A DNA stretch of 42,931 nt from Acidimicrobiia bacterium (GCA_041628225.1 JBFKPQ010000004.1:1-42931); one strand, 5' to 3'. Counted from the first letter of the stretch, positions 38,408 to 42,931 are shown. Program-made: numbers and translations. Notes: generated by a model from the sequence alone, not told the origin.

Positions 38408-39352
38408 TCAGTGGGTGATCGTCGTGCCCGTCTCGCCGGCGAGCGCGTCCTCCATCCGGTCGGGCGACGTGATCACCGCGACCTCCCCACCCGATTCCAG
38501 GAACTGCACGACCGCCCGCATCTTCGGCGCCATGCTGCCTTCGGCGAAGTGGCCACCTTCTGCGAGGTAGTGCTTCGCCTCGGCGAGCGTCAGCCGATCG
38601 ACCCATCGCTGGGTCGGTTTGCGCCAGTCGAGCGCCACCTTCTCCACGGCCGTCGAGATCAGGAACGTGTCGGCCGAGACGTCGATCGCCAGCATCGCCG
38701 ACGCGAAGTCCTTGTCGATGACCGCGGGAACGCCGACGAGGTCACCGTTGGAGTCGGCCACCACCGGAATGCCCCCTCCGCCCGCCGCGATCACCGTGAC
38801 CCCGTCGTTCATGAGCGCGAGGATGATCGGTGATTCCACGATGCGTTTGGGGAGGGGCGAAGCAACGACTCGACGCCACCCCCGGCCGGCGTCCTCGACC
38901 ACGTCCCAGCCATTCTCGGCGGCTCGGCGTTGCGCCGTCTCCTCGTCGAGGAACGATCCCACTGGCTTCGCAGGGTGCGCGAACGCCGGGTCGGCCGGGT
39001 CGACTTCGACTTGCGTGACGACCGTCACCACGGACTTGTCGATGCCGAGCCGGGCGAAGTCGTGCCCCAGGTTCTGCTGCAGGGCGTAGCCGATCGATCC
39101 TTGGGTGTCGGCGACACAGACATCGAGCGGAACTTCGTGCAGTTCATGAGCGGCCAGTTCGGATCGCCGCATGATGAAGCCGACCTGGGGACCGTTGCCG
39201 TGCGTGATGGCGATTTCCCACCCACCGGCGATCAGGTTGGCGATGTGGTGATCGGTCTCGGCGGCAGCCAGGTACTGATCTTCGACCGACTGATGATCGG
39301 CGTCTTTGATCAGCGAATTCCCCCCGATCGCCACGACGGCTCGTCTCGCCAT
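38408..39352 (-). CDS. arcC: Carbamate kinase
   Basis: AIGGNSL, THGNGPQVG, TQGSIGY, PAKPVG, GWRRVVASP, GGGGIPV, AVIDKD, GSMAPK. Confidence 0.97.
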   Translation of the reverse strand: MARRAVVAIGGNSLIKDADHQSVEDQYLAAAETDHHIANLIAGGWEIAITHGNGPQVGFIMRRSELAAHELHEVPLDVCVADTQGSIGYALQQNLGHDFARLGIDKSVVTVVTQVEVDPADPAFAHPAKPVGSFLDEETAQRRAAENGWDVVEDAGRGWRRVVASPLPKRIVESPIILALMNDGVTVIAAGGGGIPVVADSNGDLVGVPAVIDKDFASAMLAIDVSADTFLISTAVEKVALDWRKPTQRWVDRLTLAEAKHYLAEGGHFAEGSMAPKMRAVVQFLESGGEVAVITSPDRMEDALAGETGTTITH

Positions 39353-39359
39353 CAGCTCC

Positions 39360-40334
39360 TCACATCGTCAGCGCCATCACGGCCTTCTGGACGTGGAGGC
39401 GGTTCTCGGCCTGATCGAACACGGCACTCTGTGGACCGTCCACGACCTCGTCGGTGACTTCGATGTTCCGGTCCGCCGGCAGAGGATGCATGTAGATGGC
39501 GTCGTTCTTGGCGAGGTCCATCCTCGCCCGATCCGTGATCCAATCCTGGTAGCGAGCCCCGATCTCAGCCGACTCTTCCAGGTCGCTCGTGGTCATCATG
39601 CAGCCCCAGCTCTTGGCGTACACGACATCGGCGTCGCGAAAGCCGGCGTCGAAGTCGTCGAGGATCTCGAACGACCCGCCGGCCGCGGTGGCGTTCTCCT
39701 CCGCTTGGGCCACCACATCGGGGTGAAGCCGAAACTCGGGCGGATGCGTCAGGCGCACGTTGGCGCCGTACCGAGTCATCAACAGGATCTCGCTCTGGGG
39801 CACCGACAGCGGCTTCTGGTAGCTGGCCGCGTACGCGTAGCTCACATCGATGGTCAGCCCACGCGGATCGCCCTTGTATTCGATGACCGTCAACAGGTCG
39901 GCGAGCGCCTGGAACGGGTGATACCAGTCGCACTGCATGTTCAGAACCGGCGTCCGGGACGCCTCGGCCACCGCCCGGATGTACTCGTTGCCGATCCCCC
40001 AGTCGACCTGCCGGATGGCGATGCCGTCGTTGTAGCGGCCCAGGATGTCGCCGATCTCCTTGGCCGTGTCGCCGTGGGAGATCTGCGTCGTCGAGCTCTC
40101 GATGAACTGGGCATGGCCGCCGAGCTGTGCCATCCCGGCCTCGAAGCTCGCTCGGGTCCGGGTGCTGGAGAAGAAGAACAGCATCGCCAGCACCTTGTCG
40201 CGCAACAGCGCATGCGACTCGCCGAGGGCGCGTCGCCGCTTCAGGTCGAGGGCGACGTCGATGACCGTGTCGAGTTCTTGCTTGGTCCACTCCTGAGTGG
40301 TGATCATGTCCCTGCCGCGCAGATGCGTCTGCAT
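39360..40334 (-). CDS. Carbamoyltransferase, YgeW-like (not a canonical ArgF)
   Basis: SSTRT, HPFQ, HPLP carbamoyl-phosphate motifs; YAYAASYQKPLSVPQS and YAKSW in place of OTCase DxxxSMG. ATG 40334 shares a base with the upstream stop (TGATG). Confidence 0.85.
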   Translation of the reverse strand: MQTHLRGRDMITTQEWTKQELDTVIDVALDLKRRRALGESHALLRDKVLAMLFFFSSTRTRASFEAGMAQLGGHAQFIESSTTQISHGDTAKEIGDILGRYNDGIAIRQVDWGIGNEYIRAVAEASRTPVLNMQCDWYHPFQALADLLTVIEYKGDPRGLTIDVSYAYAASYQKPLSVPQSEILLMTRYGANVRLTHPPEFRLHPDVVAQAEENATAAGGSFEILDDFDAGFRDADVVYAKSWGCMMTTSDLEESAEIGARYQDWITDRARMDLAKNDAIYMHPLPADRNIEVTDEVVDGPQSAVFDQAENRLHVQKAVMALTM

Positions 40335-41284
40335 CACTCCACCGCCCCGAGCACGAGGGCCAGCAGTGCCATCCGCATGACGACGCCGTAGAACGCCTCG
40401 TCCCAATACCGGGCATGGCGTGTGTCGTCGACCTCGAGAGGCAGTTCGTCCATGCGGGGCAACGAGTGGAGCACGATGGCGTCGCGCTTGGCCTTGTGGA
40501 GCACCTCGCGGGTCACCCGGTAGTTGTCGGGCGTCGTGCCCACCGTCTCACCACGTTCGTCGCGCGACATCGTGTAGTCGGCTTGCACGACCGGCTCCAT
40601 GTAGATGACGTCGGCCTCGGCGATGACGTCCATGACGTGGTCGGCGACTCGGAAGCGGGTGTCTTTGGCCACGAGCTCCGCCCGGAACTCGTCGGTCATG
40701 CCCATCGATTCGGGTGCCACGTAGATGACCTCGGCGTCGAACTGACTGAGGGCGTAGCCGAGCGAGTGCATGGTGCGCATCCGCAGGTCGCCCACCGCCA
40801 GCCAGGTGGTGCCGTCGAGCGTGCCGCGCTCGCGGAGCACCGTGAAGAAGTCGGTGAGGATCTGCGTCGGATGCTCCCCCCAGCCGTCCCCGCCGTTGAT
40901 GATGGGAATCGACGCCCACTTCGCCACCTCGTGGGGCGCTCCCTGCTCGAAGTGGCGCATGACCGCCACATCGCCGTAGTACTCGAGCATGCGGGCGGTG
41001 TCTTTCAACGACTCCTGGTAGAAGTCCCCGGCCCGGGTCATCTTGGCGTCGGAGAAGCCGGTCACCCGGCCCCCGAGCCGCAGCATGGCGGATTCGTGGG
41101 CCAGCCGGGTCCGGGTCGAAGGCTGGTAGAACGCCGTGACCAGGATCTTCTCGGCCAGCAGTTCGATCGTCCGGCGGCGGCGAGCCACCGGTTCGAACTC
41201 GGCCGCCACATCGAACACGTGGAAGAACTCCGACCGTTCAAAGTCCTTGAGAGACAGGATGTCTCGGCCAACGAAGCTGCGCAT
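40334..41284 (-). CDS. Aspartate-carbamoyltransferase-like protein with remodelled acceptor site
   Basis: PSTRT, MRH, NGGDG.GEHPTQ, VGDL..RTMHSL, HSLPR; lacks the KGE and RxQxER motifs; AGGAG SD. Confidence 0.88.
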   Translation of the reverse strand: MRSFVGRDILSLKDFERSEFFHVFDVAAEFEPVARRRRTIELLAEKILVTAFYQPSTRTRLAHESAMLRLGGRVTGFSDAKMTRAGDFYQESLKDTARMLEYYGDVAVMRHFEQGAPHEVAKWASIPIINGGDGWGEHPTQILTDFFTVLRERGTLDGTTWLAVGDLRMRTMHSLGYALSQFDAEVIYVAPESMGMTDEFRAELVAKDTRFRVADHVMDVIAEADVIYMEPVVQADYTMSRDERGETVGTTPDNYRVTREVLHKAKRDAIVLHSLPRMDELPLEVDDTRHARYWDEAFYGVVMRMALLALVLGAVE

Positions 41285-41361: not shown

Positions 41362-41399
41362 AATGGGTTCGGCAGCAACCAGCGGCCGAACGGCCCATT
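41362..41399 (-). other. Intergenic stem-loop after the deaminase gene
   Basis: Minus-strand AAUGGG-(CCG bulge)-UUCGGC-11-nt loop-GCCGAA-CCCAUU followed by UGAUCU. Confidence 0.45.
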
Positions 41400-41410
41400 C
41401 GAGTGGGACG

Positions 41411-42775
41411 TCACGAGATCAAGCTACGCGCCAGAGCTCGGTGCGTGGCGGCGTGGCGTTCCTCGTCGATATGGACGAGGCGTCCGTCGGCGACGACGCG
41501 CCGACCGCCGACGACCACATGCACCGCTCGCTGGGGAGCACAGAGGAGAAGCGCCGCGACGGGATCGGCGGCGCCGGCATGCTCGAGGCCGGAGATGTCG
41601 AACACGCCGACGTCGGCCGCCTTGCCGACTTCGATGGAGCCCACGTCGACGCGACCCAGAACGGCCGCACCACCGCGGGTGGCGAGTCGCAGCGCGGTGC
41701 GCGCCTCGAGCTGGGGTCCGCCGTCGCCCAACCCGGGTGCGGTGGCAAGACGCGCCAGCAGCATCGCCTGACGGGCTTCGGCGAGCAGGTGCGAGCCGTC
41801 GTTGGAGGCCGACCCGTCGACGCCCAGCCCCACAGGCACCCCATGGTCCAAGTAGGCGCGCAACGGTGCGATCCCCGACGCCAGGCGCATGTTGGAGGTC
41901 GGGCAATGCGCCACACCCGTCCCCGCGTGGGCCATCCTTCCGATCTCGGCGGCGACGACGTGCACGGCGTGCGCCCACCACACATCGTCGCCCACCCATC
42001 CCACCGACTCGGCGAACGCCACCGGTGGCCGACCGAACGTGGATCGGCAGTAGTCGTCCTCATCCGCGGTCTCGGCGAGATGTGTGTGCAGACGCACGCC
42101 ACGATCCCGAGCCAGTTCGGCGGCGGCGGCCATGAGTTGCGGGGACACGGAGAACGGTGAGCACGGAGCAACGACCACCTGCCGCATCGAGCCCCGCTCC
42201 GGATCATGGAACGCGTCGATCACCCGCTCGGTGTCGGCGAGGATGGCTTCCTCGTCCTCGACCACGGAGTCGGGCGGGAGTCCGCCGGCCGACTCGCCAA
42301 CCGACATCGAACCGCGTGAGCCATGGAAACGCAGACCGACCCGGGCGGCGGCCTCGAACTGGTCGTCGAGTCGCGAGCCGTTGGGCCACAGGTACTGGTG
42401 GTCGAACGCGGTCGTGCAACCCGACAGCGCCAGCTCGGCCAGGCCGGTGATGGTGGCGGTGGAGACGTGTTCGGGAGTGAGTCGAGACCAGATCGGATAG
42501 AGGGTGCGGAGCCAGTCGAACAGGCCGGCGTCCTGGGCGCCGGGCACGGCCCGCGTCAGCGTCTGATACAGATGGTGGTGCGTGTTGACGAGCCCCGGCA
42601 CGACGACGGCACCGGTGGCGTCGATGACGTCGTCGGCCGTGCCGGGCAGGTCGGTGGTGGCCCCGACCTGGGTGATCCACCCGTCTTCCGCGTACACACC
42701 ACCGTCGACGATCTCCGTCCCGGCGTCGTCCATCGTCGCCACCACGGCGGCATTGCGGACGAGGAGGGTGCTCAC
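41411..42775 (-). CDS. 8-oxoguanine-deaminase-like amidohydrolase
   Basis: [52 protein letters not shown] 42775 overlaps the upstream stop (GTGA). Confidence 0.9.
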
Positions 42776-42931
42776 CGGTGGGCCCGCAGCGTGGCCAGCA
42801 CGTGGTCGGGGGTGAGGGGGAACCGATCGAACCACACACCGGTGGCGTCGTGGAGGGCGGCGGTCACCGCCGCCGCGTACGGGATGAACGGCATCTCGGC
42901 CATGCCGCGCGCTCCGAACGGACCGAGCGGG
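42772..42931 (-). CDS. Xanthine dehydrogenase-family molybdopterin-binding subunit, C-terminal fragment (runs off the window)
   Basis: Manual translation (not in ORF track): [52 protein letters not shown], matching the family GPFGAKGxGE...A..DATG.....P.TP terminus, including the catalytic Glu. Confidence 0.88.

Follow-up and report, generated by a model that had tools for sequence, protein, structure and literature searches.

A contig of 42,931 nucleotides from an Acidimicrobiia bacterium (GCA_041628225.1, JBFKPQ010000004.1:1-42931), here called the window, ends in a run of five genes on the minus strand. They encode a xanthine dehydrogenase (XDH)-family molybdenum subunit, an 8-oxoguanine deaminase-type amidohydrolase, two non-canonical carbamoyltransferases and a carbamate kinase. 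The first carbamoyltransferase (CT1) derives from the aspartate carbamoyltransferases (ATCases), the second (CT2) is a compact relative of YgeW. With high confidence, CT1, CT2 and the kinase are regarded as a catabolic module of reductive purine breakdown. A more specific mechanism is favoured with a probability of about 0.55: CT2 and CT1 would each phosphorolyse one ureido group of 2,3-diureidopropionate, CT1 in place of the hydrolase YgeY, with a yield of up to two ATP per urate.

The 2,8-dioxopurine or reductive urate pathway has been described in two preprints (bioRxiv 10.1101/2025.04.24.650524; bioRxiv 10.1101/2025.05.19.654654) and a commentary (PMC12990295). According to the text of the first, YgeW and YqeA generate ATP from 2,3-diureidopropanoate (bioRxiv 10.1101/2025.04.24.650524). 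The commentary lists as an open question of the pathway which ureido group the carbamoyltransferase removes (PMC12990295). ATCases carry the motifs RXQ and HP[LG]P, and paralogues without them have been named 'pseudo-ATCases' (Barba 2013, PMC4016543, Table 1). One subgroup (subgroup 2), in Nocardioides sp. JS614, adjoins a ygeW homologue, xdhABC and hyuA; the relevant section of that paper assigns no function to it. Another pseudo-ATCase, Rxyl_2847 from Rubrobacter xylanophilus, was shown there by experiment to form carbamoyl phosphate from the diureido acid allantoate by phosphorolysis (PMC4016543). As far as these texts go, the pathway and the ATP link of YgeW and YqeA are established, and the adjacency of ATCase-like and YgeW-like genes has been on record since 2013 without a function. 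A published version with two carbamoyltransferases, or a replacement of YgeY by CT1, was found neither in searches of full-text literature nor by term look-ups in the main text of both 2025 preprints.

The first-pass annotation had read the five genes as one same-strand run with overlapping or near-abutting junctions at XDH/deaminase and across the last three genes, and positions and family scores agree with it. The stop codon TGA of the XDH gene shares bases with the GTG start of the deaminase (GTGA), and 126 nt separate the deaminase from CT1. The stop of CT1 overlaps the start of CT2 (TGATG) with GGAG just before, an arrangement from which CT2 is predicted to be translationally coupled to CT1. 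Carbamate kinase follows CT2 after 7 nt. It gave the single match above cut-off in the whole assembly and is hence the only carbamate kinase found in the genome. The window holds no arginine deiminase gene (arcA) and no pyrC, pyrI or carAB, as that annotation had stated for the visible run.

The window is an entire contig, and its final 141 bases (42791-42931) are identical to C24:1-141. No other contig shares this end, which leaves C24 as the sole continuation, and the cluster is read on into C24 because of this unique overlap. In the same orientation follow the rest of the XDH molybdenum subunit, a fused FAD/2Fe-2S subunit, a small cytidine-deaminase-fold protein, a purine-type (BMP-type) ATP-binding cassette transporter, a YgfK-like protein, an SsnA-like amidohydrolase, a 'selenium-dependent XDH'-type protein resembling XdhD, and an N-carbamoyl-D-amino-acid hydrolase (D-carbamoylase). 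A regulator, a D-hydantoinase HyuA (TIGR02033, 527 bits, cut-off 393) and two fold-type-II pyridoxal phosphate (PLP) enzymes are divergent. The PLP enzymes, called ThrC-like and CysK-like, match at family level only (threonine synthase 187 bits, cysteine synthase 64 bits). HyuA exceeds its cut-off; the pathway-specific models, those for XdhD (807 bits, cut-off 830), YgfK and SsnA, all score below theirs. Escherichia coli queries against the whole assembly returned homologues of HyuA (42% identity), YqeA (48%, the carbamate kinase), YgfK (39%, N-terminal half only), SsnA (31%) and YgeW (34.6%, CT2). Orthologues of YgeY (best match a generic M20 protein of 61 bits) and of YgeX (no match above 60 bits) were not found in the assembly, which is 93% complete. 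Because the five homologues are present and YgeY and YgeX orthologues were not found, the cluster is read from its gene content as a probable variant of the reductive urate pathway.

CT1 gives split family scores, above the cut-off of the ATCase model TIGR00670 (250.8 against 236.95) and below that of NF002032 (225 against 263). Its closest solved structures are ATCases (Pyrococcus abyssi 1ml4, E = 1e-65), and a maximum-likelihood tree places it as sister to PyrB on a long stem. Relatives at E <= 1e-30 number 7975 among 8000 scored, ordinary ATCases included, and the close ones bear the database name 'aspartate carbamoyltransferase'. Its neighbours are the purine deaminase and the YgeW-like gene, not pyrC, pyrI or carAB. 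CT1 and 80 orthologues from at least seven phyla (pairwise identity 68-100%) were aligned to E. coli PyrB, and 120 of the 316 positions are invariant across these 81 sequences. The carbamoyl-phosphate site (STRTR, R105-H106, HPTQ) and R167 are unchanged in all 81. Equally constant are the replacements of K83/K84 by D/Y, of R229 by P and of HPLP (the HP[LG]P of ATCases) by HSLP, and a five-residue insert in the 240s loop where Q231 lies. In ATCase bound to N-(phosphonacetyl)-L-aspartate, the alpha-carboxylate of the aspartate moiety is held by R167 and Q231 and its beta-carboxylate by K84 and R229. The CT1 pocket is then predicted to bind carbamoyl phosphate and an alpha-carboxylate still, and a beta-carboxylate no longer. 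As the cationic residues K84 and R229 are replaced by Asp/Tyr and Pro, the fitting substrate would be an amino acid carbamoylated at N-alpha whose side chain is neutral or cationic, namely 2,3-diureidopropionate or 3-amino-2-ureidopropionate.

CT2 remains below every NCBIfam cut-off, those of ornithine carbamoyltransferase (OTCase; NF001986, 254 of 306 bits), N-acetylornithine carbamoyltransferase (244 of 288) and YgeW (NF005538, 189 of 453; TIGR03316, 176 of 500). Features shared by CT2 and E. coli YgeW and missing from ArgI are a QCD before HPxQ, a KPLSVPQ loop and a KSW that replaces DxxxSMG. The ornithine motifs DxxxSMG and HCLP are absent; AKSWGCM and HPLP stand in their places. CT2 differs from YgeW in lacking both YgeW insertions and in having HPLP where YgeW has HCLP. 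The tree comprised 32 sequences, with 11 of 80 related loci picked for taxonomic spread, and carries a program warning about meeting long branches. In it the clades of CT2 and YgeW are sisters (99/85) and stand together apart from the OTCases (100/99). By motifs and tree, CT2 is placed with the YgeW family and not with the OTCases.

A scan of one genome per species yielded 525 relatives of CT1. Of these, the best 80 loci, with 69-76% identity to CT1, were examined; they are the closest relatives and no random sample. Their sources are metagenome-assembled genomes (MAGs) of Acidimicrobiia, Nitriliruptoria, Chloroflexota, Atribacterota, Zixibacteria, Acidobacteriota and Myxococcota. The linkage asserted by the first-pass annotation is conserved among them, with CT2 in 68/80 loci and carbamate kinase in 62/80. 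The recurrence of the CT1-CT2 pair in 68 loci places this linkage well past chance. CT2 abuts CT1 downstream in 36 of the 68, is divergent in 20, is separated by an insert in 10 and is placed otherwise in 2; of the 12 loci lacking CT2, most offer little flanking sequence on one or both sides of CT1. Further members of the loci are a ThrC-like PLP enzyme (55/80), a GntR regulator (46/80), a CysK-like PLP enzyme (38/80), the 8-oxoguanine deaminase type (30/80), the XDH molybdenum subunit (28/80), SsnA (23/80) and the YgfK type (17/80). HyuA, the YgeX type and an M20 YgeY-like protein occur in four loci each.

Within a class sample of 151 genomes, CT1 and CT2 (each at >=68% identity) occur in the identical 12 genomes, on the same contigs, and the short form of SsnA is present in all 12. 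SsnA was also found in all five CT1 genomes checked from other phyla. No genome of the class sample has YgeY above cut-off, so this sample is uninformative on the exclusivity of CT1 and YgeY, and the test was extended to 401 genomes of the phylum. In three class genomes without CT1, a longer type of YgeW, with 45-48% identity to the E. coli protein, directly adjoins an M20 hydrolase (29-33% to YgeY). In the phylum sample, CT1 is present in 9 genomes, YgeY above cut-off in 20 and both in none; a YgeW-family gene accompanies YgeY in 20/20 and CT1 in 8/9 genomes. The 34 genomes with a YgeW-family gene divide into 8 with CT1, 21 with YgeY (one as two fragments only), 2 with a weaker adjacent M20 protein and 3 with neither CT1 nor YgeY. 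Family f64 holds both solutions, one genus having YgeW-like plus YgeY and another CT2-like plus CT1. This pattern fits a replacement of the hydrolase YgeY by CT1.

Two of the three genomes with neither gene carry two tandem YgeW-family genes (G183:C10:51778-53849 and G350:C57:2711-4779). They are small actinobacterial genomes (1.2-1.6 Mb, family f56), without CT1 or YgeY at the thresholds used. The tandem pair may represent an independent solution with two carbamoyltransferases.

Gene identities, residue patterns, linkage, co-occurrence and exclusivity are observed; on this basis the following substrates, step order and ATP yield are proposed. XDH and the 8-oxoguanine deaminase would channel purines to urate, whose ring would be reduced and opened by the XdhD-like and YgfK-like enzymes and the short SsnA. 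HyuA or another amidohydrolase would form 2,3-diureidopropionate. CT2 would remove one ureido group by phosphorolysis, as YgeW does, and CT1 would remove the other by the same chemistry, a task of the M20 hydrolase YgeY in E. coli. Both carbamoyl phosphates would pass to the adjacent, sole carbamate kinase, which could form up to two ATP from each urate. As judged from the residues, the 2-(alpha)-ureido group is most likely the target of CT1, and the 3-ureido group that of CT2. Since CT1 keeps the alpha-carboxylate/alpha-amine geometry of ATCase and appears to replace YgeY, the 3-ureido group would fall to the YgeW-type enzyme. Such a division of labour would therefore correspond to the order given in the text of bioRxiv 10.1101/2025.04.24.650524, and not to that of bioRxiv 10.1101/2025.05.19.654654.

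The cluster of E. coli and Clostridium (xdhD-ygfM, ygfK, ssnA, hyuA, ygeW, ygeY, ygeX, yqeA) has homologues here of XdhD, the N-terminal half of YgfK, SsnA, HyuA, YgeW and YqeA. The pairing of a carbamoyltransferase with a carbamate kinase is common to both; the ATP yield is known there, according to the text of the preprint (bioRxiv 10.1101/2025.04.24.650524), and predicted here from the genes. The present cluster differs in that a second, ATCase-derived carbamoyltransferase is added, no YgeY or YgeX orthologue was found, SsnA is short, YgfK lacks its C-terminal half, and ThrC-like and CysK-like PLP enzymes are present. Compared with the pseudo-ATCases in Table 1 and the accompanying text of PMC4016543, CT1 likewise keeps STRT and HPTQ, has H[ST]LP, lacks RxQ and adjoins a YgeW homologue and xdh genes. 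The table lists GX[SC] for subgroup 2 and VXP for subgroup 3; CT1 aligns there with P-V-T/V, where the loop insert makes the alignment ambiguous, and is left without a fixed subgroup. Rxyl_2847 (subgroup 1, a ureidoglycine carbamoyltransferase) resembles CT1 in being ATCase-derived, in lying beside a carbamate kinase and in phosphorolysing a diureido acid in purine breakdown, an activity demonstrated for Rxyl_2847 and predicted for CT1. Its route is oxidative with a uricase/allantoinase context, its substrate is allantoate and its motif is HPLA, whereas CT1 has HSLP (PMC4016543, as far as tabulated).

Several observations weigh against the assignment of one ureido group each to CT1 and CT2. 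With the D-carbamoylase, the cluster encodes three enzymes that can take off a carbamoyl group, against two such groups in diureidopropionate. A search of 10 CT1 relatives found orthologues of the D-carbamoylase (68-74% identity) in four. In three of the four, which are members of the window's own family, the gene is part of the cluster and shares a contig with CT1 and CT2. Where the order was mapped (G106, G098), it stands directly 3' of the kinase, in the order CT1-CT2-carbamate kinase-D-carbamoylase-XdhD-SsnA-YgfK'. The enzyme could take the 2-ureido group hydrolytically, and it may be a hydrolytic bypass or handle the other enantiomer. The earlier idea that no ureido group is lost by hydrolysis is partly supported: a YgeY orthologue was not found here, and the cluster itself encodes an enzyme that offers a hydrolytic route. 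In a Chloroflexota MAG (L064, a 4.2-kb contig, 790-3020), CT1 lies directly downstream of a true YgeY orthologue (43% identity, 332 bits). Mutual exclusion of the ATCase-like clade and ygeY, suggested earlier as a check, is borne out by the 401 phylum genomes and contradicted by this one. That MAG, whose completeness is not established, yielded no YgeW-type gene; its only other OTCace genes are of the ArgF and PyrB types, and CT1 may fill the part of YgeW there. HyuA is above cut-off in three of five CT1 genomes searched and was not found in two. The module usually includes two PLP enzymes (ThrC-like and CysK-like) against one (YgeX) in E. coli, one being surplus to the known pathway. As relatedness makes the genomes non-independent, plain counts are given with no statistical test. 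They include genomes flagged as unpublished; without G173, G268, G318, G378 and G405, CT1 is present in 8, YgeY in 16 and both in none. The activities of CT1 and CT2 are themselves deduced from sequence and context.

These points bear on the alternative that retains most weight, in which CT1 belongs to the same pathway module and acts on another substrate or step than YgeY. It might take the role of YgeW on diureidopropionate, accept one enantiomer only with the D-form left to the D-carbamoylase, or use another ureido acid (allantoate-like or carbamoyl-beta-alanine). The pairing with a true YgeY without a detected YgeW type in L064, the D-carbamoylase in the operon of the window's family and the failure to find the D-specific HyuA in two of the five genomes would all suit it, as would the use of allantoate by the pseudo-ATCase Rxyl_2847 (PMC4016543, in the part on this enzyme). 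This alternative is nevertheless judged unlikely, given that CT1 and CT2 co-occur exactly (12/12 genomes), that CT1 and YgeY never meet in the 401 genomes and that the annotated loci offer no uricase/allantoinase context. The HSLP of CT1 also differs from the HPLA of the allantoate enzymes (PMC4016543, Table 1).

A catalytically silent or regulatory CT1, partnering a CT2 that makes a single carbamoyl phosphate, would account for their obligate and translationally coupled pairing. It is very improbable in view of the carbamoyl-phosphate-binding residues and Arg167, invariant in 81/81 CT1, and of the remodelled 80s and 240s loops, whose own invariance points to a defined substrate pocket.

The assembly contains three full OTCace-family genes, CT1, CT2 and one on contig C26. 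The latter is a canonical argF with DVWASMG and HCLP (40% identity to E. coli ArgI). Contig C112 begins with an 82-residue C-terminal OTCace fragment bearing HPGP, directly upstream of pyrC, with carA (as read) and carB further on; pyrB would be expected at this place, and the contig end truncates it. The possibility left by the first-pass annotation that CT1 and CT2 are the genome's only pyrB and argF is removed by these two genes, and CT1 and CT2 are extra paralogues because argF and the pyrB fragment sit elsewhere. A second ATCase-like gene is likewise present in 10 of 11 class relatives bearing CT1. A housekeeping ATCase/OTCase pair, or an anabolic pair making a ureido amino acid, is scarcely credible: the TIGR00670 score and the database name of the CT1 relatives speak for it, yet CT1 lacks Lys84, Arg229 and HPLP, CT2 lacks DxxxSMG and HCLP, and both genes are flanked by purine-catabolic genes and carbamate kinase. 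The housekeeping function is ruled out by the motif losses together with argF on C26 and the pyrB fragment beside pyrC-carAB. The arginine deiminase pathway resembles the proposed route in that a ureido group is phosphorolysed and the resulting carbamoyl phosphate then serves to form ATP. It is rejected as well, with no arcA match found in the 93% complete assembly, and CT2 lacks the ornithine motif HCLP (as given in Table 1 of PMC4016543).

Table 1. Location of the purine cluster genes in the window and on its continuation, contig C24 (locus L006).
Feature	Location	Strand	Basis or detail
XDH-family molybdenum subunit, 3' end (52 codons + stop)	window 42772..42931	-	codons 42775-42930, stop 42772-42774
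8-oxoguanine deaminase-type amidohydrolase, 454 aa from GTG at 42775	window 41411..42775	-	NF006055 663 bits, cut-off 532
CT1, putative ATCase-derived carbamoyltransferase ('pseudo-ATCase'), 316 aa	window 40334..41284	-	family and PDB matches, residue pattern
CT2, putative compact YgeW-family carbamoyltransferase, 324 aa	window 39360..40334	-	both OTCace domains, YgeW motifs, tree
Carbamate kinase	window 38408..39352	-	TIGR00746 367.3, cut-off 358.25; NF009007 386.6, cut-off 266
Flavodoxin-domain open reading frame (ORF) 3' of carbamate kinase, start uncertain, probably no conserved member of the module	window 37827..38339	-	Flavodoxin_5 2.8e-11 in ORF 37827-38606
Remainder of XDH molybdenum subunit	C24:3-2210	same as window genes	MoCoBD_1, MoCoBD_2, Ald_Xan_dh_C
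YgfK-like protein, 580 aa	C24 9099-10841		matches N-terminal 400 residues of YgfK + 4Fe-4S domain
SsnA-like amidohydrolase, short form, 339 aa	C24 10851-11870		covers profile positions 57-340; about 245 bits, cut-offs 444-455
N-carbamoyl-D-amino-acid hydrolase (D-carbamoylase)	C24 14454-15386	-	355 bits to PDB 8i99
Two fold-type-II PLP enzymes, ThrC-like and CysK-like	L006 17263-20224		counterparts in L103 11296-14012

Some features of the cluster vary among relatives. A full-length YgfK form of 1113 aa with FAD/NAD domains is encoded in the relative G054 (L103 15126-18467), against the N-terminal half alone on C24. The short SsnA occurs at 205-265 bits in roughly 44 of the 151 class genomes and is thus far commoner than CT1. 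The longest ORF of the XdhD-like gene extends about 187 codons upstream of the profile match, in another frame and across the D-carbamoylase (C24 14424-14985), an artefact of listing ORFs in high-G+C DNA. Beside the purine cluster, the window encodes F1Fo ATP synthase subunits (gamma, alpha, delta, b), a DUF2339 membrane protein and a modABC-type molybdate transporter (27360-31083, 33066-34652, 35220-37830). A molybdate transporter nearby fits the two molybdenum enzymes of the cluster.

In its widest form, the proposal is that an ATCase has been recruited for alpha-ureido phosphorolysis in an environmental version of the pathway that is widespread. Carbamoyl phosphate would be recovered from both ureido groups, two ATP per urate would be formed by substrate-level phosphorylation, and YgeW-type enzymes would act on the 3-ureido group. 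This broader claim is tentative, a possibility with the odds somewhat against it. If it is true, the disagreement on regiochemistry between the two 2025 studies would be settled, with CT1 as a natural probe, and a large protein family named 'aspartate carbamoyltransferase' in databases would gain a function. If both enzymes act as proposed, the energy yield doubles, from one ATP to two per urate. The variant spans several phyla of environmental metagenome-assembled genomes, in a pathway that was itself worked out, in gut bacteria, only in 2025.

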